Positions 1 through 30,460 of a stretch of DNA of 44,936 nucleotides are shown piece after piece; positions within the stretch are counted from its first letter, which is position 1; each line of letters begins with the position of its first letter. A model generated the notes under the pieces. That model saw only the letters and a list, made by a program, of their open reading frames with translations. It did no database searches and was not told where the DNA came from. Origin of the DNA: an uncultured Candidatus Saccharibacteria bacterium (lineage in GTDB: Bacteria; Patescibacteriota; Minisyncoccia; Phycocordibacterales; Zambryskibacteraceae). Both the position numbers and the translations under genes were made by a program. The stretch spans positions 1-44,936 of the forward strand of contig CAYGIH010000002.1 of NCBI GenBank assembly GCA_964349945.1, written 5' to 3'.

Positions 1-1812
<1,812 letters not shown>

Positions 1813-4571: not shown

Positions 4572-4631
4572 GTTACTTTCCTCACCTAGCCGAAGCCGGG
4601 ATTGGAAATGATTGGAGAAACTAAACTCGGA

Positions 4632-13263: not shown

Positions 13264-14046
13264 CTACTTTAGCACGATTTTATAGGCCCTACAAGCATTT
13301 TCTACTAGAGCTTTTTGGACTGTTTCAAGGTCTTCTCCCCGAATTTCGGCTATCTTTTTAACCACTTCTACGACAAAACTTGGTTCATTTCTCTTACCTC
13401 TATATGGGACTGGAGCCACCCACGGCGCATCTGTCTCAGACATAATCATGTTTAGTGGCGTATTTTTAATCACTTCATCATAATCATGAGTAAAGGTTAT
13501 AACCCCAGTGAAGGAGGTGGTAAAACCAATAGCCCAATATCTTTTGGCCTGTTCAAGTGACCCTGTAAAGAAATGAGAATTACCTCGAAGTCTTTCTCCA
13601 TACTCCTTCTTTAGTGGTTCTAGTATTTCTAGAACTTCATCATAAGCATCTCTAGAGTGAATCATGATTGGCTTATCATACTCAAGTGCAAATTCAATGT
13701 GTTTTAAAAATTCACTTTTCTGTCTCTCAAAATCTATCTCTTTTTTATTATGAAAAAAATCCAGACCACACTCCCCTACAGCCACAATCTTTGGGTGTTT
13801 AACCAAATCAACGAATAACTTTTTATCAAAGATTCTTGTTGGATCATCAACCGGATGTACACCTATACAGGCATAAACATTTTCATATTTTTCTGCAATC
13901 TCCACTGCCCACTTAGAAGATTCTAAATCTGTACCCACTACTATCGTGCCTGTCTCACTTAAAGCCAATCTCTCCATCACAGCCTCACGATTTAAATCGT
14001 AGTCGTGAAAATTTAAATGAGAATGAATATCAAAATACTTAAGCAT
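13264..14046 (-). CDS. tatD: TatD-family metal-dependent hydrolase
   Basis: FDIHSHLNF, VGECGLDF and other TatD-like motifs are present in a 260-aa ORF. Confidence 0.85.
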   Translation of the reverse strand: MLKYFDIHSHLNFHDYDLNREAVMERLALSETGTIVVGTDLESSKWAVEIAEKYENVYACIGVHPVDDPTRIFDKKLFVDLVKHPKIVAVGECGLDFFHNKKEIDFERQKSEFLKHIEFALEYDKPIMIHSRDAYDEVLEILEPLKKEYGERLRGNSHFFTGSLEQAKRYWAIGFTTSFTGVITFTHDYDEVIKNTPLNMIMSETDAPWVAPVPYRGKRNEPSFVVEVVKKIAEIRGEDLETVQKALVENACRAYKIVLK

Positions 14047-15478: not shown

Positions 15479-16561
15479 TTAATTTATATTCTCTAGTGCT
15501 TCATTAAGTACCTTTTTGTCTGCCTCAAGATCTGCAAAATATTCCATAATAATAGTGGCCACAGGGACTGAGATAACAATCCCTAGAAATCCTCCAAGTG
15601 CTCCTCCCACCAATAGAGCAATAATAGAAACCATCGGAGGCACTCCCACCACCTTCTTTACCACCAAAGGATAAATAAGATGATTTTCAAATTGTTGGAC
15701 AATTAAGAATAAACCAACCACTACTAAGGATTGAGTCATCCCACCTGAAAAAGCGATGAGGACCGCGGGAATGGCTGCAATAACTGGTCCAAATAAAGGT
15801 ATTATTTCAAGTATGCCGGCTACAGCTGCTAGCAACAACGCATGCTCTACTCCAATAAGTAATAACCCTAAATATACTAAAACCATCACTATAACAGCCA
15901 AGATTACTTGTCCCTGCATCCATAGCCCAATCTTGTTTTGTGATCTCTTCCACAAACTCAAAATGTACTTTTCTTGCTTCCATGGTGTTACAACTTTTAG
16001 GAACTTCCCCACTCCATCTTCTTGAACAGCAAGGTAAAAGGAAAGAATAACAATAATAATAAAACTAAAGAATCCTCCAAAAATAAACGAGACGCTTGAA
16101 AACACTCCTTTAGAAAATGACTCTACAAAAGAATTCACATGTTCAACCAAATCAGTCATTGAAACAGCGTTCGTTACATTATTAAAAATACTAGATGAAC
16201 CAAACGCATTCAAAAACATCGGATCACTTGCCATGGCGCTAGAATATTCTGGGAATGATCTTATGAACCCAGAGAATTCTCCAAGAAGCGGAAGGATTAG
16301 AAAATAAAATATTCCAGCGAAAATAATAGCTACTGATATGTATAAAACCAAAATGGTTGGCACACGAGGAATCCTTTTTCTCTTGGCCCATGTTGCCACA
16401 GGTTCAACCGCAGAAGCAATGACTATAGAGGTTAAAAATATCAAAAGTAAGTCCTTAATTAGAAACAAACCAGCAAAAGCGATGAGGACTAAAATCCCCC
16501 TTACCCAGCTTCCTGTGGTTATGGACAATTCTGTTTCTTGTTTGTTTGATCGATCTGTCAT
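15479..16561 (-). CDS. AI-2E (PerM/YhhT) family transporter
   Basis: This is a 360-aa polytopic membrane protein. EIIPLFGPVIAAIPAVLIAF is typical of the AI-2E family. Confidence 0.8.
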   Translation of the reverse strand: MTDRSNKQETELSITTGSWVRGILVLIAFAGLFLIKDLLLIFLTSIVIASAVEPVATWAKRKRIPRVPTILVLYISVAIIFAGIFYFLILPLLGEFSGFIRSFPEYSSAMASDPMFLNAFGSSSIFNNVTNAVSMTDLVEHVNSFVESFSKGVFSSVSFIFGGFFSFIIIVILSFYLAVQEDGVGKFLKVVTPWKQEKYILSLWKRSQNKIGLWMQGQVILAVIVMVLVYLGLLLIGVEHALLLAAVAGILEIIPLFGPVIAAIPAVLIAFSGGMTQSLVVVGLFLIVQQFENHLIYPLVVKKVVGVPPMVSIIALLVGGALGGFLGIVISVPVATIIMEYFADLEADKKVLNEALENIN

Positions 16562-16609
16562 ACGACTATCATAGCACCTCAGAAGCTTCCTTGAAAACTG
16601 AGTCTAAAT

Positions 16610-17878
16610 TTAGATTTTAAGGATTTTTTGAAGTGATTTTTTGTCTAAACCCTTGCCCACCACAGCTAAATTCAAGGTTTCATTCTTAAATAATTCCTTA
16701 GCTACTCTCTGGATATCCTTAGTCGTCACCTTTCTTATTTCTTCTTCCATTTCATTTAGAGTTTTTATTTTACCTGCTGTGGCCTCTTCTGTGGCATAAA
16801 ACGTAGCTAAAGAATCTGTGGTTTCTAAACCCATATAAAGGTGACCAACCATATAATCTTTGGTTTTTTGAAGTTCTTTTTCTGAAATTGGTTCAGTGAT
16901 TAGGGTTTTTAGTTCATTTAAGATCGCTTTTATAACTTCGTTTACCCTACTTTTCTCTATACCAGTCACCACTCCCGCCATCCCATGATCGGTAAATGGA
17001 TCATTAAAACTGATGACATAGTAGCAAGCCCCCATCTCTGTTCTAATTTTTCTATATAACCTTGAAGAGAAGCCTCCACCAAGTATTTGAGCAAGTACTG
17101 ATAAAGCTGGCGTCCTTTTGTCATTGATTTTATAGCTTCTAAAGGCAATGGCCATATGAATTTGATCAGTCTCTTTTTCTTTAATAATAACAGCTGGGGT
17201 CTTTTGCGCTTCTTTTAATTTACCTTTCTTGGCTTTTTTAGCTGTAGAAATTTTAGAAAAATACTTCTCTACTGATTTCTCTACATTTTTTGGATTCACA
17301 TCTCCAGAAACAACCACAATTGTCCCTTCGGCTACATAATGCTTCTTTCTATAATTTATGAAATCTTCTCTGGTGAATTTTTTTATATTTTCCTTTGGTC
17401 CTATGACTGGTCTGCCTTCTGGTGTGTCACCATACATGAGTTTATACAAAGCCCACCAAACTTGTCTGTCTGGTTTATCTTCATTCATACTAATTTCCTG
17501 TAATATTACTCCCCGCTCCTTTTCTATATCCTCCTTTTTAAAGAGAGGGTCGAGATACATATCAGAAATAATATCTAGGAGTTTAACAAAATGTCTTTTT
17601 TCTGCTTTGGCATAATAGCCGGTAAATTCGTTAGAGGTAAAAGCGTTGTTGTATGCTCCAATATTATCGAATTCCAAAGAAATATCTAAAATCGTTGGTC
17701 TTTTGGTAGTACCCTTAAAACACATATGTTCAAGGAAATGTGAAAGACCGTTTTGCTCTTTGGTCTCATAATTTGAACCCGCCTCGACCATAACCATCAC
17801 CGTTACCGAAGGGTTGCCCTTGGTTGGTATCGTTATAACCCTTAAACCATTTTTTAATTTTGTCTTTGTATATTGCAT
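16610..17878 (-). CDS. M16-family (pitrilysin-like) zinc peptidase
   Basis: The inverted zinc motif HFLEH is present in GLSHFLEHMCFKGT. The ORF is 422 aa. Confidence 0.88.
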   Translation of the reverse strand: MQYTKTKLKNGLRVITIPTKGNPSVTVMVMVEAGSNYETKEQNGLSHFLEHMCFKGTTKRPTILDISLEFDNIGAYNNAFTSNEFTGYYAKAEKRHFVKLLDIISDMYLDPLFKKEDIEKERGVILQEISMNEDKPDRQVWWALYKLMYGDTPEGRPVIGPKENIKKFTREDFINYRKKHYVAEGTIVVVSGDVNPKNVEKSVEKYFSKISTAKKAKKGKLKEAQKTPAVIIKEKETDQIHMAIAFRSYKINDKRTPALSVLAQILGGGFSSRLYRKIRTEMGACYYVISFNDPFTDHGMAGVVTGIEKSRVNEVIKAILNELKTLITEPISEKELQKTKDYMVGHLYMGLETTDSLATFYATEEATAGKIKTLNEMEEEIRKVTTKDIQRVAKELFKNETLNLAVVGKGLDKKSLQKILKI

Positions 17879-17917
17879 GCGGAGAAGTGTAGCAAGAAAA
17901 TATACAAAAGAAAAAGG

Positions 17918-18133
17918 TCACGGCTTGCGTGACCTCATGGCATCAACCCTGCCTCGCAAAATGCTAATCATGCGAGCATTGCTGTTAAACACCCGCCACT
18001 GCTCATCGCTCATCTTGTCCATTCCCCCAACAAGGTTAACTAGAGCAATATTTCGCATTTGGGCACTTTCCAGATCATGAAGATTGAGTTTCATCTCCTC
18101 CTCTATCTGATCACATCCTCTTGGAATCCGCAT
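17918..18133 (-). CDS. Small hypothetical protein, higher-GC orphan gene with its own promoter, SD and terminator
   Basis: The ORF is 71 aa. A GGAGG SD lies 6 nt upstream of the ATG at 18133. A TTGACA -35 box lies upstream, and a terminator hairpin GGTCACG-caagc-CGTGACC plus a T-run overlaps the stop. A hand count of one 60-nt line gave ~50% GC. Confidence 0.6.
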   Translation of the reverse strand: MRIPRGCDQIEEEMKLNLHDLESAQMRNIALVNLVGGMDKMSDEQWRVFNSNARMISILRGRVDAMRSRKP

Positions 18134-18188
18134 CACCTACCTCCAAATGAGAGTTCTATAAACAACAATACATTAATTCCAGTTTTTG

Positions 18189-19406
18189 TCAAATACTAGT
18201 CTTCAAATCTTTAATAGCCACCCGTTTTTGCTCTCCAGTATCTCTATCTCTTAGGGTCACTGTATCGAGTAATTCCTTGTTTTCTCCCAAGGTATCAAAG
18301 TCTATGGTGATACAGAACGGCGTACCTATCTCGTCTTGTCTCCTATATCTCTTCCCTATGTTGCCATTATCATCAAAAACTACATTAGGAATTTCCTTTT
18401 TTAACATCACATAAACTTCTTTAGCCTTAGCCACGAGTTCTGGTTTGTTTTTTAGAAGTGGGAAAACGGCTGCACGAATCGGAGCAATCTCCTTTGGAAA
18501 TTTGAAATAATTTCTTGTTTCTCCTCCGAGTTCATCTTCTGTATAAGCGGATATAAGAACCGCGAGCATTGTTCGATCAACTCCAAGAGAAGGTTCTATC
18601 ACATGAGGAATAAATCTCTCTCCACTTTCTTCATCAAAATATGTTAAATCGACTCCGCTCGTGGTGGTGTGTGCCTGGAGATCAAAATCTGTTCTATAAG
18701 CTAAACCCCAAAGCTCCCTCCTTCCAAATGGATAATCAAACTCAAAGTCTATAGTGCGCTTAGAATAATGTGCGGGCTCCTTTACCTCAAGCTCATGGAC
18801 CTTATTTAAACCAAGTGCCTTGGCGAAATTTTGCATTATCTCTCTCCAATTTTCAAAATGCTTTTCCCAGTCTTCTTTCTTAGTAAAATACTCAACTTCC
18901 ATTTGTTCAAACTCTCGTTTCCTAAAAAGCCATTCTCTAGGAGCGATTTCATTCCTGAAAGCCTTGCCTATTTGAGCCAAACCAAATGGAAGCTTTGGAT
19001 GGAATGAATCAATGATATTTTTAAAATTCACAAACATACCTTGGGCGGTTTCAGGCCTCAAGAAACTTTCTATAGCATTCTCCCCTGCACCAACACTTGT
19101 CTTGAACATCACATTGAATTGTTCACCATTCTCAAGAGGATCAGCAAAACCAGCGACGTGTCCACTAGCCTCCCAAACTTTTGGATTCATAATGATGGCA
19201 CAATCAACCCCGAGCATATCTTCCCTCTCATCTACGAACATTTTCCACCAAAGTTTGATTATATTTTCTTTGAGCTTTAAACCAAGAGGACCAAAGTCAA
19301 AACTACCCGCAAGTCCTCCATAAATAAGAGACCCAGGGTAAACAAAACCTCTGCTCTTGGCTACTGCGATTATTTTCTCTAAAACGTCTGGATTTTTTTC
19401 TGTCAT
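18189..19406 (-). CDS. glyQS: Glycyl-tRNA synthetase (class II GlyQS type, shortened)
   Basis: RGFVYPGSLIYGGLAGSFDFGPLG, FLRPETAQGMFVNF, EPSLGVDR and an anticodon-binding C-terminus are present. The ORF is 405 aa. It seems to lack the insertion usually found between GHVxxFxDP and NxMFKT. Confidence 0.92.
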   Translation of the reverse strand: MTEKNPDVLEKIIAVAKSRGFVYPGSLIYGGLAGSFDFGPLGLKLKENIIKLWWKMFVDEREDMLGVDCAIIMNPKVWEASGHVAGFADPLENGEQFNVMFKTSVGAGENAIESFLRPETAQGMFVNFKNIIDSFHPKLPFGLAQIGKAFRNEIAPREWLFRKREFEQMEVEYFTKKEDWEKHFENWREIMQNFAKALGLNKVHELEVKEPAHYSKRTIDFEFDYPFGRRELWGLAYRTDFDLQAHTTTSGVDLTYFDEESGERFIPHVIEPSLGVDRTMLAVLISAYTEDELGGETRNYFKFPKEIAPIRAAVFPLLKNKPELVAKAKEVYVMLKKEIPNVVFDDNGNIGKRYRRQDEIGTPFCITIDFDTLGENKELLDTVTLRDRDTGEQKRVAIKDLKTSI

Positions 19407-19431
19407 GTATCGTATCTTATATATTTAAAGG

Positions 19432-21375
19432 TTATTTCACAACCATATCATTACCTTGGACATATTTTGGATCAGTATCAAAGCGGGTGGTCACTTGAGG
19501 GACATTAACCCTGATTGTCTCCTTAGTAAACGTGTCCGTCCCACTAAAACCGATATTTTGGGCTAGGAGTGGAGCTGTGTTTACTTGGCCAATAGAAGGG
19601 GTAAGGCTAACTTTAAAGAATACTTGCTTACCTGTGGCAGAGAACCCCGCCCCAGAAACCAAAGTCCCTACATTCCATTTGAAAGAATTGGTTGTCTCAT
19701 CAAACATAATATCTTCACTGCTTGGACTAGTTTCTCCTACCCATGTCACATTTGTCCCCAACGTCCCAAAAACAGCAGAGTCAACAATGTCGTTTTGAGT
19801 ATTCCCTAAAGTAAGAGAAATGGTATAGGTAGTTGGTTTGTCTGCCTTTGGGGGTGTCGAGCCGGAGTTAGTAAACGGTCCACGAGAATAAAGTGATTTT
19901 GCTGTGAGGCTTACTTCTGAAGCAATCTTCACTGACCCAGAGTCATTAGCTGACGTATTAATGGTGGTGTCACCATTTTGAGGCACAGCAGTAAAGTTAG
20001 AATTCAAAGATATCTCTGAATTCTTATTGCCAGAAGGAAGAGTGCTCAGAGAAGCAAATCTAAACGAAACCTGTCCTGTTGTCCCTGGCGAAATTGCTGA
20101 CAAATCATTTGTTTTTGACTTATCCCAAGTGATAGTGTTTTGAGAAGAATTATAAAATCCTCCATTTTGAGCAACTACTGAATATTTATCTAATGCTACA
20201 CCATTCAATTTTATTTGAATCTTCCCATTCACCACACTCTGAGGCAAATTATTAACATAATCAATTCTACCTTCAACAATTTTTCCTATAGGAGCAACAA
20301 TACTCGAGGACTCATCATTGTTTAAAAACAATTTTAGACCCAAAGAAGAATGGTTGATGCTTATAGTATTACTTTGGAGAGCAAGGGTGGCATCAAATTT
20401 TTGGTTGTTGTTTGGGCTAGCTACTCCTGCATAAAATCTAAATGTTCTTTCTTCTTTGTCCTCACCAGTAAGAACACCATTTATTTTCACTGTTTTTTTA
20501 TCCCCTGGAGCCATGTCACCTAGAACCCAAATATTTTCAGAGAGAATCGTTCTTGGATTTGAATCAATCATACTATAACCATAAGGATATTCACCTTTTA
20601 GTAGAACGTTTTTTAGTATTTCACTAGAATTAGAAACAATGGTCACAGTAGTAGTAAAATTATCACCCGAAACAACACTTGTTGGTTCTTCTACCGTCAT
20701 GGTCACAGGCGATGTGCCGATAGAAACATCATAAAGTTTTTCTTTAGTGAAAGTGGCATTCGAACCTTTTACTCCATAATCAATAGAAACTTTTATTTCT
20801 TTTGTATCAGCCTTTTGACCAAAAATGATTGCTTTAAGTACATGGTTATACTCTCCTCCAGAAACAATCGTGCCTACAGGAATTTTTGAACGAACCAGAG
20901 GTGCATTCGAATCATCAGGAGAACGAGTACTCGAAGGATATTCTATGAGTAAGTTGGTATTAGTGAGATCAGCATTGTTGTTATTCTTTATATTCACATT
21001 CATGTTTAAAACTTCTCCAGCCGAAATTGATGCTGGACCAAGGATAGTGATATCCACATTTTTTGAAGATATAAAATTAGATCCTCCAAGGAAAACATAG
21101 GCAGTAAACCCGAGCGTAAGGACAAAAAATACAACCGCCATAATAAATAACTTTTTCATAATTGGATGGGTTGGAGGTTTCCTGTTGTCACCTCTAATAA
21201 TGTCGTCTATGCTTTTGGTTTTCCAATCTGCTTCGAGTGTAGGTAAATCAAGTGGCTCAACAGTCGAGCGATTCATATTTGGGTTTTGATACTTCGTCCT
21301 AGAATAAAGAGCTTGGTCAAGTTCGCTCAACTTGCTCGCTGGCCTTTCTTTATCACTTTGAGGTTCATGCAACAT
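19432..21375 (-). CDS. Large membrane-anchored extracellular protein (repeated beta-sandwich, CARDB/DUF11-like by eye)
   Basis: The ORF is 647 aa with a single TM helix (LFIMAVVFFVLTLGFTAYVFLGG). The remainder is Ser/Thr/Asn-rich beta-rich sequence. Confidence 0.6.
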   Translation of the reverse strand: MLHEPQSDKERPASKLSELDQALYSRTKYQNPNMNRSTVEPLDLPTLEADWKTKSIDDIIRGDNRKPPTHPIMKKLFIMAVVFFVLTLGFTAYVFLGGSNFISSKNVDITILGPASISAGEVLNMNVNIKNNNNADLTNTNLLIEYPSSTRSPDDSNAPLVRSKIPVGTIVSGGEYNHVLKAIIFGQKADTKEIKVSIDYGVKGSNATFTKEKLYDVSIGTSPVTMTVEEPTSVVSGDNFTTTVTIVSNSSEILKNVLLKGEYPYGYSMIDSNPRTILSENIWVLGDMAPGDKKTVKINGVLTGEDKEERTFRFYAGVASPNNNQKFDATLALQSNTISINHSSLGLKLFLNNDESSSIVAPIGKIVEGRIDYVNNLPQSVVNGKIQIKLNGVALDKYSVVAQNGGFYNSSQNTITWDKSKTNDLSAISPGTTGQVSFRFASLSTLPSGNKNSEISLNSNFTAVPQNGDTTINTSANDSGSVKIASEVSLTAKSLYSRGPFTNSGSTPPKADKPTTYTISLTLGNTQNDIVDSAVFGTLGTNVTWVGETSPSSEDIMFDETTNSFKWNVGTLVSGAGFSATGKQVFFKVSLTPSIGQVNTAPLLAQNIGFSGTDTFTKETIRVNVPQVTTRFDTDPKYVQGNDMVVK

Positions 21376-21393
21376 AAATAAAGTATAACATTT

Positions 21394-21930
21394 CTATGAA
21401 AGCTGGCTGGCTTCGAGGCCGTGGTTTATGGCTTTGATCAGGTCTTTGGTTTCTAGATTCAAATCTGTTTTATTCAAATATCCGAGGTGAAAGAGAATGG
21501 TGGCCACAAATTTAGTTTCAAATTCTTTTATATCCTCTACCCCATCCTTCACCGCTTCTTTCACTAACTTTTCCAACGCATCAAATAATTCTCCATGCGG
21601 AGTTTCTCCTTGAACCATTCTTTCTAAAAGGGCGAGTGCTTGCGAGATGGCTTTCAAAAGTTTCCTATTATCACTTAATTTTATAGAAATATTTTCATCC
21701 ACTGATGAACTCGTGATTCTCCAAAATTCCTTACCCTTCACAAACGAAACAGTAGAAAGAGAGATGGGTTCGAGCGAACCACGGAGTTTGGAATGTTCCT
21801 TGCGCACGCCCTGAGCACTGGCTCTTATTAACCCAAGTTCTTTGGTCAAAAGTGAATACAACCTATCTGCCTCTCTATAAGGCTGTGAGGAAAGCACAAG
21901 AGCAGGGGTCGTATGAATGGTATAAGACAT
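21394..21930 (-). CDS. recO: DNA repair protein RecO (short form)
   Basis: The N-terminal OB-fold pattern reads TPALVLSSQPYREADRLYSLLTKELGLIRASAQGVRK. The ORF is 178 aa and lacks an obvious Zn-finger region. Confidence 0.75.
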   Translation of the reverse strand: MSYTIHTTPALVLSSQPYREADRLYSLLTKELGLIRASAQGVRKEHSKLRGSLEPISLSTVSFVKGKEFWRITSSSVDENISIKLSDNRKLLKAISQALALLERMVQGETPHGELFDALEKLVKEAVKDGVEDIKEFETKFVATILFHLGYLNKTDLNLETKDLIKAINHGLEASQLS

Positions 21931-24900
21931 TAGAATTCAATATTTGTAGCCGAAGTAATCTCTTTCCTAAACTTCTCAAATAAATCTTTTTCTTCTGATT
22001 TAACTTCATAAGGCATCACATCACTAGGTTTCAAATTCTTTTCTTTCCTTAAATCTTGGATAACTCGAATGACATCTCGCATCCTACCTTCTTCAGCGAG
22101 CTCTGGAGTGATGATTGTATCAATTTCTACCCCTTCTATCTCTTTGTCTATTACCTCCTTCACGTTCACTTCGTCCTTAATCAAATCTACATAAACATCT
22201 TTTGTAGAAGTAGTGAGCGAAGCGATAGGTTGCCTGATTTTTATATTTGCTTTTGAACGAGCTTCAAGAGCGACAGAAACTTTTTGCCTGGTAGCTTCCA
22301 TTTTCTTTATTATTTCTTCGTCTACATTTGTATCAGCAGTTGGCCAGCTTTCTAGGTGCACACTTTCTACATCATTTTCAATGCGGAGTTTTCTATAAAG
22401 CTCTTCTGCAATAAATGGTGCAAATGGGGCTAGGAGTTTAGTGATGTTTTTCAACACAAAATACAAAGTCTGCTTGGCTTCCTTATCCCCTTCTTTAATC
22501 CTCTCCCTTGAACGACGGAGATACCAAGTAGAAAGATCGTCCACAAAATCTCTAAAGCTCCTAGTTGGTTCAATTAAATTATAAACATCGAGTTTTTCAG
22601 TCATGATGCTTGTGAGTTCATTGAATCTGGTGAGAATCCATTTATCCAAAATATTTTCTGATTTTGGTGAATCATTATTCTCTAAACTCTTATCTCTAAA
22701 CAAATCATAGAAAGAATATATGTTGTCGAGCATGTTGAATACTCGTTTATTCACTTCATCAACTGTCTTATCATCATAATTCTTCGGATCTCCTGGTTGA
22801 TTAATCGAATACATCCAAAATCTCACCGCATCAGCTCCGTGCTTCTCCATCGCTTCCATAGGATCAACAACATTGCCGGTAGTCTTACTCATCTTCTTAC
22901 CATCTTTGTCCAAAAGTAATCCAAGACAAATGACATTTTTATAAGCTGCTCCCTTACCCATCAGTACTCCGAGTGCGTGCATGGTGTAGAACCACCCTCT
23001 GGTTTGGTCTAAGGCTTCAGATATAAAGTCTGCTGGATACATAATGTTTGAGAAATCCCCAGCTTTCTCTCTGTCATCAGAGTCTTGGGAGAAAGGCATC
23101 GAACCAGAATCAAACCACACATCCATCACCTCCTTCACTCGTCTGTATTCCCTACCATCCTTCTCTAGCACCACTTCATCTATAAATGGTTTATGTAAAT
23201 CTAGAGCGAAATCCTTATCATGTGGCAGTGGGGAGAAATCCAATGGACGCACTTCAGCATTTTTAAATCTTTGGAAATCATTCACAAAATCTTTACCTTC
23301 CGAAAGTGAATATTTTTTATTATCTGGCATATGTAAACCAGAAACTACATAAAGAAGCCATGCTGGGCCACCATGAGTCACAATCAAAATGTTTTTACCT
23401 TTGTATTTATTTTCTAAATCATAAATAAAAGAACCCATTCTTCGTCTAACATCGGCGAGTGATTCACCATTAGGCATTGTCACATTGAACCAATCTGGTC
23501 CTGCTGCATACATAGTTTTGTGATATTCATTCCAATCACCACCATCAAACTTCCCTGGATTTATTTCTATAATTCTGTCATCTAAAGCTACTTCGACACC
23601 CAAAACCTTACCAACTATTTCTGCGGTTTCTTTAGTACGAGTGAAAGATGAAGAGATGATTAAATCAATTTTCTTATCTTTCAAATCTTCTGCGGATTTC
23701 TCCGCTTGTTTTTTGCCATCCTCAGTTATATGGTCACCCTCTTGATTCTTGAAGCTAACAATCTCATTCTTGTTTCCTTCTGTGCCTCCATGACGCATCA
23801 CAAAATATTTGTTCCCAGATTTCTTTGTATATTTTCTAATTGTATCCAAAGAATCAACAACCATTCTTTCCTTACTATCTTCTGTCTGCCAGATTGGCAG
23901 TGGTGTGCCCCAATATCTCTCTCGGCTGATAGCCCAATCCTTCACCTCTCGTAGCCATTCACCAAAACGACCTTCTTTTATATAATCCGGCTCCCAATTT
24001 ATTTTTTGATTTTCTTCAACTAATTTATCTCGAACCTCAGACATTCTTATGTACCAAGAATCTCGAGCATAATAAATGAGTCGCGTGCCGCATCTCCAAC
24101 AAAACGGATATGCGTGAGTATAATTTTCTTTATCAAAAAATAGTCCTCGACTTTGAAGTTCTTTGAGTATCTCCACAGCCAGAGTTTCATCTACCACTGA
24201 TTTTCCTTCCAACCAATCTGTACCTTTTATAAACAAACCTTCTGGAGAAACAAGATGCACTTTAGGCAAACCTATTTTAGTGCCCAAATCAAAGTCCTCC
24301 TGTCCATACATCACCGCTGTATGCACAATACCCGTCCCATCTGTAGTAGTAACAAAGTCTGCTGTGTGAACCTTAAAGGCCTTATCTAATGCCTCTTTTG
24401 GAGCGTCTACAGCCAATCCGGATACAAATGGATACAAGGGTTCATAAGCCATACCCTGCATCTCAGAGCCCTTGTGCTCTGCGATTATTTCATAAGGTTC
24501 TTTAATAATTGAAAGTCTTTCTTTGGCTAAAACATAAATCTCTTCACCCACTTTCGCTTCTACATAATCAATATCTGCTCCAACAGCAAGCGCAATGTTC
24601 CCTGGGAGAGTCCAGGGGGTAGTAGTCCACGCAAGGAAATATGCTTTTGGAAACCCGACAATTTTAAACTTCACATACAGAGAAATATCCTTCACATCTT
24701 TGTATCCTTGAGCAAGTTCGTGTGAAGAAAGTCCTGTCCCACATCTTGGGCACCAAGGGACAACTTTATAATCCTTGTATAAAAGTTTCTTCTTCTCTAC
24801 TTCAGCAAGGATTGTCCAAATAGATTCAATGTATGGATTATGGTAAGTGACATACGCGTTTTCATAATCTGCCCAATACCCCATGCGGTCACTGAACTGT

Positions 24901-25289
24901 CTCCAGAGATCTACATAAGTCCAAACGGATTTCTTGCATTCATCATTAAATTTTTCTACTCCATAACTCTCAATTTCTTTCTTGGATTTTAATCCCAATT
25001 TTTTCTCTACTTCGAGTTCGACTGGCAGTCCGTGTGTGTCCCAACCCGCCTTTCGACGCACATGAAAGCCTCGCATGGTTTTGTAGCGCGGAATAGCATC
25101 CTTGAAGGCGCGGGCCTCGACGTGGTGAATACCTGGTTTGCCGTTCGCAGTTGGAGGACCTTCATAAAACACAAATTCACCCTTGTCTGCGGGTTTCTCT
25201 AAGGTCTTTTCGAATATTTGATTGTCTTTCCAAAATTGGAGGACCTTCTCCTCCCTTTGGGAACGAGTAAGCCCTTTATCTTCAGGCAT
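21930..25289 (-). CDS. ileS: Isoleucyl-tRNA synthetase carrying an internal histidine-phosphatase-like domain
   Basis: PTANGKPGIHH (HIGH), the editing-domain motif TTPWTLPGN, WAISRERYWGTPLPIW, DVWFDSGSMP and KMSKT are all present. The ORF is 1119 aa, with an extra ~190-aa block at aa ~494-685. Confidence 0.93.
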   Translation of the reverse strand: MPEDKGLTRSQREEKVLQFWKDNQIFEKTLEKPADKGEFVFYEGPPTANGKPGIHHVEARAFKDAIPRYKTMRGFHVRRKAGWDTHGLPVELEVEKKLGLKSKKEIESYGVEKFNDECKKSVWTYVDLWRQFSDRMGYWADYENAYVTYHNPYIESIWTILAEVEKKKLLYKDYKVVPWCPRCGTGLSSHELAQGYKDVKDISLYVKFKIVGFPKAYFLAWTTTPWTLPGNIALAVGADIDYVEAKVGEEIYVLAKERLSIIKEPYEIIAEHKGSEMQGMAYEPLYPFVSGLAVDAPKEALDKAFKVHTADFVTTTDGTGIVHTAVMYGQEDFDLGTKIGLPKVHLVSPEGLFIKGTDWLEGKSVVDETLAVEILKELQSRGLFFDKENYTHAYPFCWRCGTRLIYYARDSWYIRMSEVRDKLVEENQKINWEPDYIKEGRFGEWLREVKDWAISRERYWGTPLPIWQTEDSKERMVVDSLDTIRKYTKKSGNKYFVMRHGGTEGNKNEIVSFKNQEGDHITEDGKKQAEKSAEDLKDKKIDLIISSSFTRTKETAEIVGKVLGVEVALDDRIIEINPGKFDGGDWNEYHKTMYAAGPDWFNVTMPNGESLADVRRRMGSFIYDLENKYKGKNILIVTHGGPAWLLYVVSGLHMPDNKKYSLSEGKDFVNDFQRFKNAEVRPLDFSPLPHDKDFALDLHKPFIDEVVLEKDGREYRRVKEVMDVWFDSGSMPFSQDSDDREKAGDFSNIMYPADFISEALDQTRGWFYTMHALGVLMGKGAAYKNVICLGLLLDKDGKKMSKTTGNVVDPMEAMEKHGADAVRFWMYSINQPGDPKNYDDKTVDEVNKRVFNMLDNIYSFYDLFRDKSLENNDSPKSENILDKWILTRFNELTSIMTEKLDVYNLIEPTRSFRDFVDDLSTWYLRRSRERIKEGDKEAKQTLYFVLKNITKLLAPFAPFIAEELYRKLRIENDVESVHLESWPTADTNVDEEIIKKMEATRQKVSVALEARSKANIKIRQPIASLTTSTKDVYVDLIKDEVNVKEVIDKEIEGVEIDTIITPELAEEGRMRDVIRVIQDLRKEKNLKPSDVMPYEVKSEEKDLFEKFRKEITSATNIEF
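23235..23810 (-). other. Histidine phosphatase superfamily (PGAM/SixA/CobC-like) domain nested within ileS
   Basis: The block reads KYFVMRHGGTEGN ... LIISSSFTRTKETAEIVG ... NGESLADVRRR ... ILIVTHGGPAW. This gives the RHG motif, the S-x-x-R-T-x-E-T-A motif and the distal H-G-G. It is in frame and flanked by IleRS sequence on both sides. Confidence 0.75.
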
Positions 25290-25304
25290 TGTGGGCTTAT
25301 CTTA

Positions 25305-26933
25305 TCACATCCTTTCTGGGGTAGGAATACCGAGGATAGTAAGGCCGTTTTTCATGACTATATTAAAGGCACGAGTGAGAGCGATGAGATAAGCAGATTC
25401 TGGTTTATCCGAAATTATTTGTTCGTTCGCATAAAGATTATTGAAACTGCCTGCAATTTCAGTGAGGTAAGTGGTGATGATGTTTGGAGAATACTCCTTG
25501 GAAGCTCGTTCAACTATTTCTGGGAATCTATATAGAAGCTTCTCTACTTCATGAATATTTTCTCTCTCTGCACTCGCATTACCTTTCATATTCGCTTTCT
25601 CAAGGATTGAACAAGTTCGTGCATAAGCGTATTGCAGATAAACTCCAGAATCACCTTCAGTAGAAACTGATTTTTCTATATCAAAAATAATATCGTTGCC
25701 GATTGATTGACGAAGAATCATATATTTAATCGCCCCTATGGCTATTGCTTCGTCACCTTTGGTCTTTTCTTTTACTCCATCAATTAGAGTTTCTGCGAGA
25801 GTCACTTCACCAGTCCTTGAACTCATCTTACCTGTAGGTAAGCGAAGCATGCCGTGTCCAATGTGTTTGGTTATTTCTGCAAGATTTGGAGAAATAAGTT
25901 TGAGCGCCTGAAGTAAAACCTTAAAATATGCGTTGACCTCATTGCCTGTCACTACGATAGATTTAGTGTATGGATACTTCTCAAACTTCATTGGAGCCAA
26001 ACCAAGCTCCTTGGCTTCATAAGTAGGGATGCCCTCGGAGTTTATGAAAACTCGAGTATGTAAATTTTTATCATACATCTCTCCATCAAACACTATTGGG
26101 TATCTCTCCTCTTCAGTACTACTCCTAAAAATCTTTTTACCATCTTTATTTGTATTTTCTTCTACGAGTTTCTTACCTCTTGGGGCAGCTTCTGATTCAA
26201 AAAAATAATAATCGAAGTGACTTCCTAATTTTTTATATATAGAATCAAAATATTCTAGACTCGCCTTTCTGCCTTCATCATAAAGTTTGTTTATTGATTC
26301 ATCTGATCTGTCATAAATCTTTTTGTTTATCTCTTGGATTTCTTTGCGAACATTCTCATCTTCCTCAAATTTCTTATTTCCGAAAACATATGGTTCCTGA
26401 CTTCCAGCCATCATTCCCCAAATAGCTTTGGCCACATGAATACCCACATCTCCTTGATAACATGCTTGTTTCACCTCAGCTCCATTCCATTCAAAAATGT
26501 TTGCAAGTGTTGAACCTATTATATTAGGCATGAGATGACCAATATGAAATGACTTGAAAGGATTTGGATCAGTATGTTCAACCATCACCTTCTCTCCTTT
26601 CATATTTTCATTCTTCCCAAACTCGCTTCCCTTCTCTACTATCTCTCCAATACTTTTTTTAAAAAATTCTTTGGATAAATAGAAGTTTATAAAAAGCATT
26701 TTTTCTTCTATTTTTTCAATTTCTGGTGGTTGATTTGCTTTTAACCAATTTACAATATCTGATACATTGCCTGCTGGTAATATTTTTAGTGCTATATTCG
26801 AGCTATAGTCCCCAAAAGTCATATTGGTTGGGTGTTCTACACTAAAATTCACATTTTTAAACTCACCGAGATTTAGTTCAGTTAATGCCTGTCTTATTAA
26901 ATTTTCTATTGTTTCTTTCATTGCTCCAATCAT
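25305..26933 (-). CDS. argS: Arginyl-tRNA synthetase
   Basis: VEHTDPNPFKSFHIGHL (HIGH-type), the MSSR variant of KMSKS in GKMSSRTG, and a DALR-type C-terminus are present. The ORF is 542 aa. Confidence 0.92.
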   Translation of the reverse strand: MIGAMKETIENLIRQALTELNLGEFKNVNFSVEHPTNMTFGDYSSNIALKILPAGNVSDIVNWLKANQPPEIEKIEEKMLFINFYLSKEFFKKSIGEIVEKGSEFGKNENMKGEKVMVEHTDPNPFKSFHIGHLMPNIIGSTLANIFEWNGAEVKQACYQGDVGIHVAKAIWGMMAGSQEPYVFGNKKFEEDENVRKEIQEINKKIYDRSDESINKLYDEGRKASLEYFDSIYKKLGSHFDYYFFESEAAPRGKKLVEENTNKDGKKIFRSSTEEERYPIVFDGEMYDKNLHTRVFINSEGIPTYEAKELGLAPMKFEKYPYTKSIVVTGNEVNAYFKVLLQALKLISPNLAEITKHIGHGMLRLPTGKMSSRTGEVTLAETLIDGVKEKTKGDEAIAIGAIKYMILRQSIGNDIIFDIEKSVSTEGDSGVYLQYAYARTCSILEKANMKGNASAERENIHEVEKLLYRFPEIVERASKEYSPNIITTYLTEIAGSFNNLYANEQIISDKPESAYLIALTRAFNIVMKNGLTILGIPTPERM

Positions 26934-27027
26934 AGCAAAAAAGAAGAAAATTGCTTATTAGACAGCCTCTTAAATATGAGTAATATGAGGTCAGATTCGT
27001 CCTTTCACATCAACTAAGAGGATCCTT

Positions 27028-27930
27028 ATGGACCCCCAGTATTTGCCCTTTGCAGATCGCAAACCAGATCATCAGTATTTGAAGCTCATTCGCAGAATCT
27101 ACAATGAAGGCGAGATGGTTATTCACCCCCACCAACAAGGGATGGGGCGGAGAACCCATCTTTCCCTGCCTCCGCTTATCTACAAAATGTCTAACGGTTT
27201 CCCACTCCTCACGGAGAGAAACATTCCGTTCTGGAAAGTAGCCATCGCAGAGCTCGTCGCCTTCATGAACGGCGTCACTACCAACGAAGGCCTCCATGCA
27301 TATGGATGTGCCTGGTGGGACATGTGGACCACGAAGGAGAAGTGTGAGCTCTTCGGACTCGAAGAAGGTGACCTCGGTTGGGCGTCTTATGGTGGAGCAT
27401 ACGGGAAGTTCCCAATGCCCAACGGTGAGTCCTTCAACCAGTTCGTGCATCTCATTCAAAGCATGAAAGAATCGCCGAACTTGGCTACGCACTGCATCAC
27501 TTCATGGATCCCTTATGGAGTCCTTCAACACAGTGGGTTAAAGCGCAAGGTGGTTGTGGCTCCATGCCACGGCAACTTCCTGAAGTTCACCATCATCAAT
27601 GGGAAGTTGTCACTCCAGCATGTGCAACGCTCTGCTGATATGCCTGTTGGAGTAGTTTCCAACATCATTCAGTATGCGGCACTGCTCCTTATGGTCGCGC
27701 AAGTGATCGGCGTCGAGCCGTACGAGTATTCGCACTACTTCCTCGACGCTCAGATCTATGAGAACCAGTTTCCACAAGTCAAAGTCCTTTTGGACAGAAG
27801 CCCTCGAGCCTTCCCGACTCTCCGCATCATCGACAAGTCGGTCAAGGATATCTTGGCTTTCCGCCCGGAGCATTTTGAACTCACTGACTACAATCCAAAC
27901 CCAGGGATGAAGTTCCCCGTCACGGAGTAG
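27028..27930 (+). CDS. thyA: Thymidylate synthase (ThyA) family enzyme, divergent
   Basis: The catalytic Cys is present in VVAPCHG, along with QRSADMPVGVVSNI (Arg/Asp/Asn triad region), AIAELVAF, WWDMW and DAQIY. The SD AAGAGGA lies upstream. GC is higher than in the flanks. Confidence 0.8.
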   Translation: MDPQYLPFADRKPDHQYLKLIRRIYNEGEMVIHPHQQGMGRRTHLSLPPLIYKMSNGFPLLTERNIPFWKVAIAELVAFMNGVTTNEGLHAYGCAWWDMWTTKEKCELFGLEEGDLGWASYGGAYGKFPMPNGESFNQFVHLIQSMKESPNLATHCITSWIPYGVLQHSGLKRKVVVAPCHGNFLKFTIINGKLSLQHVQRSADMPVGVVSNIIQYAALLLMVAQVIGVEPYEYSHYFLDAQIYENQFPQVKVLLDRSPRAFPTLRIIDKSVKDILAFRPEHFELTDYNPNPGMKFPVTE

Positions 27931-27935
27931 TGCCC

Positions 27936-28871
27936 ATGCTCAAGATCATCGTTGCAGTAGCAACGAATGGGGTGATCGGACGGGGTGACAAACTGCCGTT
28001 CAATCTCCCCGCTGACCGCCGCAAATTCAAGGACATAACACTTGGCCATCCAGTGGTCATGGGCTCGAATACCTTTCGGTCCCTCCCAAAGCAGTTTCGG
28101 CCGCTTCCTGGTCGAGAGAATATTGTGCTCTCCAGAAACCCGAATGCACAGATGGATAACGTGACACACGTACTCTGGTGGAAGGAAATTCTCCATCGAG
28201 CAGAAACTGAGGACATGTTCGTCATCGGCGGATCGAGGGTATACGAACTCGCTCTCGACCATTCTGATGAACTTTTTATCACTCGCGTTCACGCTGAAGT
28301 CGAAGGTGACACCTTCTTTCCTGAGCTCGACATGAGCGACTGGAAACTTCTCTCGAGCGAAGAACATGCTCAAGATGAAGAGAATGAGTTTGCCTTCACT
28401 TGGGAAGTGTATGAGAGGATTCCACGAATCTCTCCGCATAACCCATTCATCGAGATGCGCAATTGTCGCACAGACGAACAACGCAGGGCAATGAAAGAAA
28501 TCCTCGATGCTGGAGTTTGCCCGTTTTGTGCAAGTAATTTCCACAGATGGCACAAAAAGCCGCTTTTGTGGTCCGGAGACCACTGGTTTGTCAGCGAGAA
28601 CATGTGGCCATACCCCGGCTCCAAGATTCATCTGGTGGCTTTCCTGAAGTATCATGCGGAAGGTCCAGAGGACATGTCAGTCGCTGAATTTGGAGAGCTC
28701 CACACCATTCTCGTCTGGGCAATGAAAGAATACGGCATCAAGGGTGGTGGTCTCTACATGCGCTTCGGTGAATGCCTGTGGACTGGTGGTACTGTACGCC
28801 ACATCCACGCACACATCGCCGCGAAGGCCGAGCTCGGCGGTGAGGCAATTAAGTTTTACCTCGGCAGTTGA
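27936..28871 (+). CDS. folA: Dihydrofolate reductase fused to a C-terminal HIT (histidine triad) domain
   Basis: The DHFR part reads IIVAVATNGVIGRGDKLPFNLPADRRKFK...PLPGRENIVLSR...VIGGSRVYE. The HIT part reads CPFC...HLVAFLKYH...GGTVRHIHAHIAA (H-x-H-x-H at 28800-28814). A GGAG SD lies 8 nt before the ATG at 27936. A GTG at 27930 overlapping the thyA stop is an alternative start. Confidence 0.8.
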   Translation: MLKIIVAVATNGVIGRGDKLPFNLPADRRKFKDITLGHPVVMGSNTFRSLPKQFRPLPGRENIVLSRNPNAQMDNVTHVLWWKEILHRAETEDMFVIGGSRVYELALDHSDELFITRVHAEVEGDTFFPELDMSDWKLLSSEEHAQDEENEFAFTWEVYERIPRISPHNPFIEMRNCRTDEQRRAMKEILDAGVCPFCASNFHRWHKKPLLWSGDHWFVSENMWPYPGSKIHLVAFLKYHAEGPEDMSVAEFGELHTILVWAMKEYGIKGGGLYMRFGECLWTGGTVRHIHAHIAAKAELGGEAIKFYLGS

Positions 28872-28876
28872 TGTTG

Positions 28877-28906
28877 AAGCCCGCACCTTATAGGTCGGGC
28901 TTTTTT
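28877..28906 (+). terminator. Rho-independent terminator of the thyA-folA::HIT operon
   Basis: The stem AAGCCCG...CGGGCTT is followed by a T-run. Confidence 0.7.
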
Positions 28907-28911
28907 AATAA

Positions 28912-28948
28912 TAAAAAAAACCTCGTTCTGTTAGACAGAAACGAGGTT
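28912..28948 (-). terminator. Rho-independent terminator of the cytidylyltransferase-deaminase operon
   Basis: On the minus strand a long stem, AACCTCGTT(T)CTGT-cta-ACAGAACGAGGTT, is followed by T8. The 5' arm of the stem overlaps the stop codon. Confidence 0.75.
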
Positions 28949-29794
28949 GTCCTTCACTTGAATGAGCTTCACTCCATGAGTCTTGAAAACTTCCTGTGCA
29001 TTCAGAGATGAAAATCCTTCAGAGAAATACACCGTGTGTACTCCACTGGCTGAGATTTCTCTGGCACACATCTCACAAGGGAAAGTGGTCACATACAGCG
29101 TCGCCCCTTCGAGCGCATGGCCGTATCTGGCACACTTGATGATGACTGACTGCTCTGCGTGAATCACGCAGGACTTACCCATCTGCCCTGCATCGCGATT
29201 GATGCTTGGATCACCAAAGATGTATGTCTCGTACTCATTCGGCATATGAGTATTGCATGCGGTGGCCAACACCTTCCCGTCTCGACTGATAGCCGCAGCG
29301 GCCACACGTCTCCACCAATCTGGACTCCGACCAGAGAACTTCTTCAGCTCACTGAGAAACTCAACATCGAACTGGTCAGTGGAAATTTCCACATGAGGAA
29401 TGACTGGTTGATTCTGTAGAATTGCCGTCATATCCCAACGCGCCCAGATCATCTCATAGGCCACATTGCACTCAGCTGGCAGTAAGTATTTCTCTGCCAA
29501 AAGATGTGAAATATCTTCGTCTGGAAGAATGATGCATTCTTCCGCATGAGGTGAGCTGTCCAAACCTGGGAACAAAGGATTGAAGATTCTCACCTTTCTA
29601 ACCAAGTTCAGAGAACTGATCATGCGAAGCATGGTCACGGCCGGCAAACCGGCCATGTTGCGAGCGAGCCGAGGCAGTAAATCATATGCATCCTTCTCTG
29701 ACACGAGCAAAAGGGTGCAATCCGAATACTTCGACAACCAATCGATGTGGCGTTGGTTCAGCGTCGGGATATACGCAATGAGGTTCTGGGTCAT
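28931..29794 (-). CDS. Two-domain protein: unknown N-terminal ~135-aa domain plus C-terminal dCMP/CMP-type zinc deaminase
   Basis: The C-terminal half carries the deaminase signature CVIHAEQSVI ... TFPCEMCA. I recognise no motif in the N-terminal half (IAYIPTLNQRHIDWLSKYSDCTLLLVSE...), including no P-loop. The start overlaps the upstream gene's stop (ATGA), with GGAG upstream. Confidence 0.8.
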   Translation of the reverse strand: MTQNLIAYIPTLNQRHIDWLSKYSDCTLLLVSEKDAYDLLPRLARNMAGLPAVTMLRMISSLNLVRKVRIFNPLFPGLDSSPHAEECIILPDEDISHLLAEKYLLPAECNVAYEMIWARWDMTAILQNQPVIPHVEISTDQFDVEFLSELKKFSGRSPDWWRRVAAAAISRDGKVLATACNTHMPNEYETYIFGDPSINRDAGQMGKSCVIHAEQSVIIKCARYGHALEGATLYVTTFPCEMCAREISASGVHTVYFSEGFSSLNAQEVFKTHGVKLIQVKDNLVSV

Positions 29795-30399
29795 TTTTGC
29801 TCCAGACCCAAATGCCTGTCCACGACTTCCTTAACAGCGACAGCCAAGTCCTTGGCCAAACTCTCAGCTCCCTCTCTCTGAAGGCGTTGCATCTTGGCTG
29901 AAGTACTGATGCTCTCAGGTGGAGCTTGGGGATCAAGATGTTCAATCCGACCACAGAACTCATCCAAGATTGCCTTGTCCTTGTCTGTGAATGAGCTCGT
30001 CGTCTTGGACATCACGAGTACATCCGGCTTCACTAACCTGATGAGGTCGTACATGTGCTGGTCCACATCTCGCCGAGTGATAATCTTCACAAACGAAAGC
30101 ATCGACAGGAGTTCAATACGTTCATTGAACCCATCGAATGGACGAGTCGGGCCCTTCATTTGACGCGTCAGCTCGTCGGAGTCAACCCCAACGATGAGGA
30201 TATCTCCGAACTGCGAGGCTTCCTGCAGGTAGCGACCATGTCCAACATGGAACATGTCGTAAACACCTTGTGTGAGTACAATCTTGTAACCAGATTCACG
30301 CAATAGTCGAACCATCACTTCAAGATCATTGAAGTCGGGGATGTACTTCCCGTGCAAACCACTACTGCCTTCCAAAACACCCTTGAGATTTGGTGTCAC
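29791..30399 (-). CDS. Cytidylyltransferase-like (HxGH nucleotidyltransferase; RfaE-II/TagD/RibL-like) protein
   Basis: IVLTQGVYDMFHVGHGRYLQEASQFGDILIVGVDSDELTRQMKGPTRP provides the HxGH motif, and a distal ISTSAKMQR motif is present. The GTG start is preceded by GGAGG. Confidence 0.75.
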   Translation of the reverse strand: MTPNLKGVLEGSSGLHGKYIPDFNDLEVMVRLLRESGYKIVLTQGVYDMFHVGHGRYLQEASQFGDILIVGVDSDELTRQMKGPTRPFDGFNERIELLSMLSFVKIITRRDVDQHMYDLIRLVKPDVLVMSKTTSSFTDKDKAILDEFCGRIEHLDPQAPPESISTSAKMQRLQREGAESLAKDLAVAVKEVVDRHLGLEQK

Positions 30400-30460
30400 A
30401 AAGCCTCCGTGAAAGTATTTACAAGGACCAAAGTCTGTTCTTACTTTACTTGCTCATAAG

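Follow-up and report, generated by a model that had tools for sequence, protein, structure and literature searches.

A histidine phosphatase domain nested within the CP3 subdomain of isoleucyl-tRNA synthetase in an uncultured Candidatus Saccharibacteria bacterium

The ileS gene and its inserted block

We analyzed a stretch of 44,936 nucleotides (the window) from an uncultured Candidatus Saccharibacteria bacterium (family Zambryskibacteraceae in GTDB; contig CAYGIH010000002.1 of assembly GCA_964349945.1), in which the gene for isoleucyl-tRNA synthetase (IleRS), ileS, carries between its two halves an additional block containing a whole histidine phosphatase (Table 1). A reading of the bare sequence by a model that ran no database searches (the original prediction) had proposed that a complete branch-1 histidine phosphatase is nested in the synthetase, and our searches agree with it. 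Pfam placed His_Phos_1 (PF00300; 121.4 bits, with a cut-off of 21.7) between two segments that match tRNA-synt_1, which is the outcome that its suggested profile check expected, and found Anticodon_1 and DUF5915 C-terminal of the phosphatase domain.

The host protein is collinear with class Ia IleRS, as had been claimed. The strings PTANGKPGIHH, TTPWTLPGN, WAISRERYWGTPLPIW, DVWFDSGSMP, and KMSKT are all present in the open reading frame (ORF), and the score against the NCBIfam ileS model TIGR00392 (868.9 bits) was above the cut-off of 621.4, with the match broken into two stretches at aa 495. Besides the class I motifs, the protein has the anticodon-binding domain and the CP1 editing residues (T222-224, H323, and D332), which were invariant among the aligned homologues, as were the zinc ligands of the CP core (C180, C183, C397, and C400). 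The closest solved structure is IleRS2 of Priestia megaterium (8c8w; E=3.6e-229), with Staphylococcus aureus IleRS1 at 8.3e-94; P. megaterium IleRS2 and Thermus thermophilus IleRS ranked best among the solved relatives, and the structural matches of the full-length AlphaFold2 (AF2) model (predicted local distance difference test [pLDDT], 89.8, and about 95 over the insert; predicted template modeling score, 0.83) were IleRS2 and eukaryote-type IleRS. Thus, the protein lies nearer to the T. thermophilus, P. megaterium IleRS2, and eukaryote-like group than to IleRS1. It is neither a MupA nor a MupB mupirocin-resistance IleRS by the NCBIfam exception models (726 and 744 bits against a cut-off of 1900), nor an IleRS with an N-acetyltransferase (GNAT) domain of the NF040702 type (298 bits against a cut-off of 1999), and Pfam found no GNAT in it. 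With IleRS2 (8c8w), its best overall match in sequence and structure, it shares the GIHH motif, a KMSKS-type loop, an intact CP1 editing site, and a DUF5915-type C-terminal domain, whereas the described IleRS2 enzymes have a short CP3 without an enzymatic insert.

The noncanonical signature G/AxHH was present in 118 of 119 close homologues in the alignment. This signature is known only from IleRS2, and the swapped motif makes IleRS2 approximately 1000-fold more resistant to mupirocin, as reported in 2023 by Brkic et al. (PMC10485003). Because of this link to mupirocin hyper-resistance, the lineage with the nested phosphatase may have been shaped by inhibitor pressure. The nested phosphatase is present in HxGH as well as in G/AxHH IleRS2 lineages.

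The extent of the insert was defined by alignment with 8c8w, in which residues 10 to 488 of the protein correspond to residues 11 to 478 of the solved chain and residues 690 to 1048 to residues 480 to 849, so that the insert replaces about one residue. The original prediction had placed a block of approximately 190 aa at 23235 to 23810, which translates to aa 494 to 685 (KYFVMRHG through RPLDF); the block is there, but by this alignment it extends to 201 aa. The view that IleRSs have only a short linker at this position has to be corrected, because the insert sits at the tip of the CP3 subdomain. CP3 comprises approximately 60 to 70 aa, binds zinc in T. thermophilus, and varies in topology among species (PMC7191050, PMC7955072). 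In fungal IleRS it spans residues 459 to 526 (yeast) and 473 to 534 (Candida), follows the CP2-CP3 linker WxxSRxRYWG, and connects to the second Rossmann half (PMC7955072, PMC7191050); in the yeast enzyme, this linker lines the pocket that takes the CCA end of the tRNA (PMC7955072). The block itself was covered by no IleRS profile and by no solved IleRS structure compared. The four zinc ligands of CP3 are gone in the window's own subclade. Since many other nested IleRSs keep CxxC...CxxC around the insert, we rejected the idea that the insert took the place of the zinc knuckle.

The ORF is free of stops across the block, and we found no Hint, LAGLIDADG, or endonuclease domain in it using Pfam. 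The junctions (KKSGN followed by KYF, and PLP followed by HDKDF) are without the Cys/Ser/Thr...His-Asn residues of splicing, and thus the block is not an intein, in agreement with the predicted continuous frame and lack of intein-type junctions. The composition had been described as matching the rest of the gene. It does not look foreign, but the insert is slightly richer in AT (GC, 0.365, and GC at third codon positions [GC3], 0.279) than the remainder (0.400 and 0.358, respectively).

Table 1. Features of the window and of the nested IleRS (residue numbers refer to the ileS product)
Feature	Position	Strand	Remarks
Partial 23S rRNA gene	1-1806	(-)	5' 1740 model positions, cut by window edge; sole Rfam match of the window
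recO, directly downstream of ileS	21394..21930	(-)	Pfam RecO_N
ileS ORF, type-2 IleRS with nested phosphatase	21930..25289	(-)	1119 aa, stop-free; TIGR00392
IleRS C-terminal part, aa 690-1119	21930..23222	(-)	Second half of CP3, second Rossmann half, SC-fold, anticodon-binding domain, DUF5915 C-terminal domains; aligned to 8c8w 480-849 and beyond
KMSKT motif	22881-22895	(-)	Second Rossmann half of IleRS
Inserted block, aa 489-689	23223..23825	(-)	201 aa; gap in 8c8w alignment; whole histidine phosphatase with N-terminal lead KKSGN and C-terminal tail NAEVRxLxFxPLP
His_Phos_1 core, PF00300, aa 496-647	23349..23804	(-)	Pfam E=4.9e-35
H639, distal His, THGG	23373..23375	(-)	120/120 sequences
E575, predicted general acid, DxRLxE motif	23565..23567	(-)	120/120 sequences; aligned to DERLRE of PhoE
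R551, second phosphate-binding Arg, SxxxRTxETA motif	23637..23639	(-)	120/120 sequences
R499-H500-G501, phosphate-binding Arg and predicted nucleophilic His	23787..23795	(-)	R and H 120/120, G 118/120; aligned to RHG of PhoE
IleRS N-terminal part, aa 1-488	23826..25289	(-)	First Rossmann half, CP core, CP1 editing domain, CP2, first half of CP3; aligned to 8c8w 11-478
WAISRERYWG, aa 452-461, CP2-CP3 linker motif	23907..23936	(-)	Translation; 28 residues N-terminal of the insert
GIHH, aa 53-56, noncanonical class I signature replacing HxGH	25122..25133	(-)	Translation
argS, directly upstream of ileS	25305..26933	(-)	Pfam Arg_tRNA_synt_N, tRNA-synt_1d, DALR_1
thyA	27028-27930		GC-rich island
DHFR ORF	27930-28871		313 aa, about 150 extra C-terminal residues; GC-rich island
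dCMP-deaminase-like gene	28931-29794		GC-rich island
Cytidylyltransferase-like gene	29791-30399		GC-rich island

The strings KYFVMRHGGTEGN, SSSFTRTKETAEIVG, NGESLADVRRR, and ILIVTHGGPAW all lie in the insert. The catalytic Arg and His residues that the original prediction had recognized in RHG, S-x-x-R-T-x-E-T-A, and T-H-G-G are invariant in 119 to 120 homologues, and the alignment with PhoE pairs RHG, the second Arg, DERLRE, and THG position by position. The only invariant columns of the insert among these homologues were R499, H500, G525, R551, E575, R617, and H639, with N506 kept in 119 and E609 in 118 of 120. By mean pairwise identity the phosphatase core (49.5%) has drifted much further than the Rossmann halves (72 to 76%), and the full catalytic set is intact even in nested inserts with just 36 to 53% identity to that of the window. 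Because the active site is conserved on a drifting scaffold, the domain is predicted to be an active enzyme rather than a structural filler. We are highly confident, from sequence comparison, in the nested architecture together with an active phosphatase.

With regard to its subfamily, the insert has the profile score and the Arg/His/Arg/Glu/His set of branch 1 of PF00300, and the fold of the insert-only AF2 model (pLDDT, 90.8) agrees with this. The insert is predicted to form an independent lobe, and the top Foldseek matches of the model (TM-score, about 0.7) were PspA, GpgP (glucosyl-3-phosphoglycerate phosphatase), the riboflavin-pathway HFP, TIGAR, PhoE, and CobC, with a probability of 1.00 for the branch-1 alpha/beta fold of PspA, GpgP, PhoE, and CobC. 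A profile of the insert family matched PhoE (1ebb/1h2e; 2.3e-25), PspA (9e-24), and CobC (2e-21), whereas dPGM structures matched only its N-terminal 100 or so positions. We rejected an identity as dPGM (dPGM_arch, 72.6 against 225 bits; GpmB, 54.8 against 261), CobC alpha-ribazole phosphatase (TIGR03162; 93.9 against 162.9), PspA phosphoserine phosphatase (NF045917; 78.1 against 350, although PspA was the top Foldseek match), or SixA phosphohistidine phosphatase (TIGR00249; 32.5 against 74.5, covering aa 495 to 590 only), because each score was below the curated NCBIfam cut-off. The label "PGAM-like" in the original prediction is therefore right as to branch 1 and too loose otherwise; by these comparisons, the insert groups with the small phosphatases PhoE, PspA, and CobC and not with the mutases, with no assignable orthology. 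It resembles PhoE (YhfR) of Geobacillus stearothermophilus (1ebb/1h2e), PspA (4ij5), and CobC (6nru) in fold, in the R-H...R...E...H set, in a length of approximately 200 aa, and in a short cap region. In contrast to these free-standing metabolite phosphatases, it is nested in an aminoacyl-tRNA synthetase (aaRS), and it stays under the curated threshold of all named NCBIfam subfamilies.

Distribution and arrangements of the phosphatase

The survey of orthologues suggested by the original prediction found the architecture to be widespread. All 120 best homologues (59 to 85% identity; 1051 to 1181 aa), which come from Parcubacteria, Minisyncoccota, Paceibacterota, Nomurabacteria, and Zambryskibacteria, carry PF00300 and are annotated merely as IleRS or "class I tRNA ligase family protein." In a scan of one genome per GTDB species, queried with a single protein, at least 322 species of Parcubacteria/Paceibacteria encode a relative of the insert, including Parcubacteria RAAC4_OD1_1; 80 of the 322 loci were fetched for inspection, and all 80 had exactly one copy, within a long ORF, with no second copy inside 4 kb. 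When the insert served as the query of an exhaustive HMMER search, 15153 matches at E<=0.001 were obtained; the majority of the best 150 representatives were complete or fragmentary IleRSs in which the domain occupies this same position.

Free-standing homologues of approximately 190 to 210 aa were also found, from about 45% identity downward, and some of them align with the insert end to end. Five of them (P0391, P0398, P0412, P0411, and P0403; P and L numbers are our labels for homologous proteins and for loci) are encoded directly upstream of an ileS without an insert (937 to 976 aa, no PF00300), and in five Paceibacterota species loci (L096 and L098-L101) the phosphatase gene likewise lies directly upstream of an insert-less ileS, with argS upstream. 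The order argS-phosphatase-ileS was seen in L091 and L098-L101, and the phosphatase and ileS genes overlap by 8 to 11 nt in several split loci. Overall, the phosphatase was directly upstream of ileS in 10 of 11 loci of close free-standing homologues; the locus scan started from P0412 gave only 7 close loci, its peptide patterns being too specific. The gene of a more distant homologue (P0419) is located away from ileS.

The window has no separate phosphatase gene between argS and ileS, the slot used in these relatives. The position of recO is shared with the split-form order in L084, L086, L094, and L081, and a wider order is common to the window and the split loci: argS, ileS, recO, a DUF11/DUF7619 surface protein, a class II aaRS, and an M16 peptidase. 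Nested and split forms thus complement each other, which is what a single function in two arrangements would lead one to expect. Judged by these alignments and gene orders, the block of the window appears to equal an entire protein whose gene stands by itself just upstream of ileS in related Paceibacteria. As a side observation, several genes for phosphate handling (two CYTH genes, Ppx/GppA, and a HAD hydrolase) precede the phosphatase-ileS pair in L086 (2292-5633), which may be a coincidence.

The domain also occurs at other places and in other proteins. A tandem clade has two phosphatases in CP3, with identities of 42 to 64% within the copy 1 group, 36 to 46% within the copy 2 group, and approximately 21 to 32% between the two. 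Two IleRSs with a normal short CP3 (P0186 and P0220) have one phosphatase in the loop after WFDSGSMPYAS, where it is flanked by WFESGSMPYAS and FPADFIAEG, and a second one at about the position of aa 869 in the window. The site at about aa 869 is also occupied in P0150, which has a further copy in CP3. Nested copies were found as well in two ValRSs, P0229 and P0124, the latter with four copies (one in CP2 and three in or after CP3); we had considered P0124 as a four-copy IleRS and rejected this, since both are ValRS. P0201 consists of TsaC and His_Phos, and its junction ESGNKYFLMRHA resembles the nested IleRS lead KKSGNKYFVMRHG. In the multicopy proteins, 25 of 29 copies keep the full eight-residue set. 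The departures are P0124 copy 3 (N506 replaced), P0148 copy 1 (E609 and R617 replaced), and two N-terminally cut copies, and R499, H500, R551, E575, and H639 are retained in all of them wherever the sequence is complete.

A C-terminal His_Phos was found in three ArgRSs (P0140, P0271, and P0272), and in L082 such a fusion is followed by an IleRS-like gene. This form is best explained as the neighboring phosphatase gene joined to the upstream argS. It is not a general theme, being limited to 3 of the 120 listed ArgRS clusters.

In a bootstrapped neighbor-joining tree of the IleRS core (892 columns), which on deep branches is indicative only, the split lineages were nested among the insert-bearing ones (95% support for P0142 with the L088 clade; 79% for P0138/P0147/P0260 with L084/L087). 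This nesting suggests several gains or losses.

Other domains were noticed in IleRSs of this kind. P0259 (1066 aa) contains an in-frame RAYT/IS200-like Y1 transposase domain in the CP1 region (aa 326-472) besides a nested His_Phos (680-854) and a GNAT (935-1063), and P0098 (1334 aa) has an HD phosphohydrolase domain in its C-terminal region (aa 1140-1258) in addition to the nested phosphatase. The loops of IleRS in the candidate phyla radiation (CPR) seem unusually permissive to foreign domains.

The original prediction had called the architecture one it did not know, and our literature search likewise found no paper on a catalytically intact phosphatase embedded within the catalytic body of an aaRS or on its split, multi-site, ValRS, ArgRS, and TsaC variants; the AARS Online paper does not mention it. 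Such sequences have been public, labeled plain IleRS, since at least the RAAC4_OD1_1 genome. Both families, and synthetases with extra domains, are already known, and what is new is the nested intact phosphatase with its variants. Two precedents come near. The IleRS of NF040702 also has a second unrelated catalytic domain, which is a GNAT and not a phosphatase. Rv2228c, the RNase H/CobC-type acid phosphatase of M. tuberculosis (NF005567, the second-best NCBIfam phosphatase match of the insert at 87.7 bits, under the cut-off of 326), joins a nucleic-acid enzyme to a branch-1 phosphatase of the same subgroup, but its partner is RNase H and the fusion is end to end rather than nested.

Possible function of the nested phosphatase

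We propose that an intact phosphatase of the PhoE/PspA/CobC type was captured into a loop at the CP3 tip of a type-2 IleRS. It would hydrolyze phosphomonoesters via a phospho-His500 intermediate, with R499, R551, and H639 holding the phosphate and E575 acting as the acid. The substrate may be a phosphate group carried by a macromolecule that is bound to the synthetase, namely, the tRNA, or by the synthetase itself. Our first-choice target would be a blocked tRNA acceptor end, that is, a 3'- or 2'-phosphate from RNase damage, the opened product of a cyclic phosphate, or a toxin-added 3'-pyrophosphate.

The adjacent-gene form, the several insertion sites, and the ValRS, ArgRS, and TsaC versions argue for a functional link to the synthetase, and we consider such coupling to be plausible, with the case for and against it about evenly weighted. 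Because of the versions with other partners, the link would not be specific to tRNA-Ile. Tethering aids only a substrate held by the synthetase, and co-expression from an operon would do for a diffusible metabolite; we therefore infer a macromolecular substrate. CP3 also begins right after the linker of the CCA pocket. That the substrate is a phosphate on the tRNA end is put forward tentatively, as one possibility that is more likely wrong than right. Similarly tentative is the wider idea that tethered phosphatases constitute an unrecognized step of tRNA phosphate removal in CPR bacteria, reached convergently by at least three independent IleRS insertions and by the ValRS, ArgRS, and TsaC forms.

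Two known designs lend themselves to comparison with this proposal. The CP1 editing domain of IleRS, ValRS, and LeuRS is likewise a hydrolase nested in the Rossmann fold that acts on the 3' end of the enzyme's own tRNA, and it demonstrates that a nested hydrolase works in a class Ia scaffold; however, it is universal in those enzymes, has an unrelated fold, and acts on aminoacyl esters, not on esters of phosphate. A functional analogy comes from the CCA-adding enzyme of E. coli, a tRNA 3'-end enzyme to which a phosphohydrolase is joined: its HD domain combines phosphatase with 2',3'-cyclic phosphodiesterase activity and has been proposed to heal blocked ends. This domain differs in having a metal-dependent HD fold, in being terminal and not nested, and in lacking any sequence relationship.

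The aaRSs are among the best-studied enzymes, and a second, apparently active enzyme resides inside the catalytic body of one of them across a large part of an uncultivated radiation. Its occurrence next to ileS as a gene of its own, nested at several positions, and in fusions to other synthetases predicts that it works with the charging machinery. If the target were a blocked tRNA end or a phosphorylated synthetase, this would add a new layer of translation quality control or defense. Were it a metabolite, a function would be assigned to the large orphan family of "PhoE-like" proteins that occurs in organisms of minimal metabolism. Either way, the family offers a clean natural case of repeated domain-in-domain insertion.

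Several points weigh against a tRNA-directed or, more generally, a synthetase-coupled role. The insert is not basic (mean pI, approximately 6.0) and gives no sign of a broad RNA-binding surface; our literature search found no branch-1 histidine phosphatase acting on RNA ends; and the nearest characterized relatives are all small-molecule enzymes. The existence of several tether points and of a separate-protein form implies that precise geometry is not required. The partners IleRS, ValRS, ArgRS, and TsaC, together with a nucleotidyltransferase neighbor, share adenylate chemistry that releases pyrophosphate (PPi), which fits a small-molecule role. Genes can also remain neighbors over evolution although they share no function, as in E. 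coli ribF-ileS. Finally, the linkage is not universal. In L102, the exception among the 11 loci, the phosphatase gene follows a nucleotidyltransferase gene, and in L081 (10001-12795) an argS-His_Phos fusion is followed directly by recO, with ileS absent from the conserved slot. With respect to the L102 locus itself (3780-5863), the phosphatase overlaps the end of the sugar-nucleotidyltransferase-like gene and precedes a PD-(D/E)XK nuclease gene.

A neutral origin from the adjacent gene is a serious rival, and we rate it as possible, though not probable. Here the domain would be a housekeeping small-molecule phosphatase of a reduced genome with no mechanistic tie to aminoacylation, which local rearrangements repeatedly put from the neighboring gene into permissive surface loops; the synthetase would have tolerated the fusion, which was kept only since the phosphatase is needed. 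Its closest characterized relatives are indeed metabolite phosphatases (PhoE, PspA, CobC, GpgP, and the riboflavin HFP), it functions as a separate protein in sister lineages, and it persists in L081 without an adjoining ileS and in L102 in another context. The acidic to neutral insert accords with this, as does CP3, a structurally variable and permissive subdomain (PMC7191050), and unrelated GNAT, HD, and RAYT-type transposase domains have entered CPR IleRSs too. An accident of proximity does not, however, explain the ValRS and TsaC versions; the same type of domain is found at three or more different IleRS sites and in stable tandem pairs of diverged paralogues; and the simplest accidental fusion from an upstream gene, an N-terminal one, was not seen.

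Clearance of a small phosphorylated molecule of adenylate chemistry, such as AMP or another nucleoside monophosphate, PPi, or a phosphorylated antimetabolite or aaRS inhibitor, seems rather unlikely to us. It would account for the fact that every partner, down to the NTP_transferase beside the L102 copy, releases PPi by nucleotidyl transfer, and PhoE hydrolyzes AMP along with many other esters. GNATs, which are typical detoxifiers of aminoacyl-nucleotide antibiotics, also co-occur in some IleRSs (NF040702). On the other hand, small molecules diffuse, so that nesting offers little over co-expression, and hydrolysis of AMP would waste purines in an organism probably unable to make them. We know of no branch-1 pyrophosphatase and of no phosphorylated IleRS inhibitor.

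Slightly less likely still is a protein phosphatase that guards IleRS or a bound partner by countering a regulatory or toxin kinase of the HipA/HipT type that inactivates aaRSs. Branch 1 includes true protein phosphatases (SixA, PGAM5, and Sts-1), the domain is paired one to one with a single protein, either in cis or through a shared operon, and several tether points could reach several phosphosites; besides, the IleRS lineage already bears the G/AxHH signature, which is associated with inhibitor pressure. Nevertheless, the similarity to SixA is weak and partial, no kinase gene was present in the window or in the related loci examined, and to our knowledge no phosphorylation of a bacterial IleRS is known.

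A pseudo-enzyme that serves as a structural filler, stabilizing CP3 or adding tRNA-binding surface, is very improbable: the subclade of the window has lost all four zinc ligands of CP3, which would suit this reading, but the zinc knuckle is kept around the insert in many nested IleRSs, the insert is not basic, and the catalytic residues are invariant across the family and kept in nearly every extra copy. An artifact or selfish element (mis-assembly, two genes read through as one, or a mobile insertion resembling an intein), for which only the slightly lower GC3 of the insert speaks, was rejected as having a negligible likelihood, because the architecture recurs with identical junctions in hundreds of independent assemblies, the frame is continuous, and Hint or endonuclease domains and splice-junction residues are absent.

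Other features of the window

The 45-kb window contains no tRNA gene. A segment of 13 kb (14039-26933) accommodates four aaRS genes, namely, those for MetRS (14039-15478), a class II aaRS with an HGTP anticodon domain (18189-19406), IleRS, and ArgRS, and this gene order recurs in distant Paceibacteria loci, e.g., L081 and L088. A GC-rich island (27000-30400; GC of 0.50 compared with about 0.38 elsewhere) looks like a horizontally acquired thymidylate/nucleotide module.

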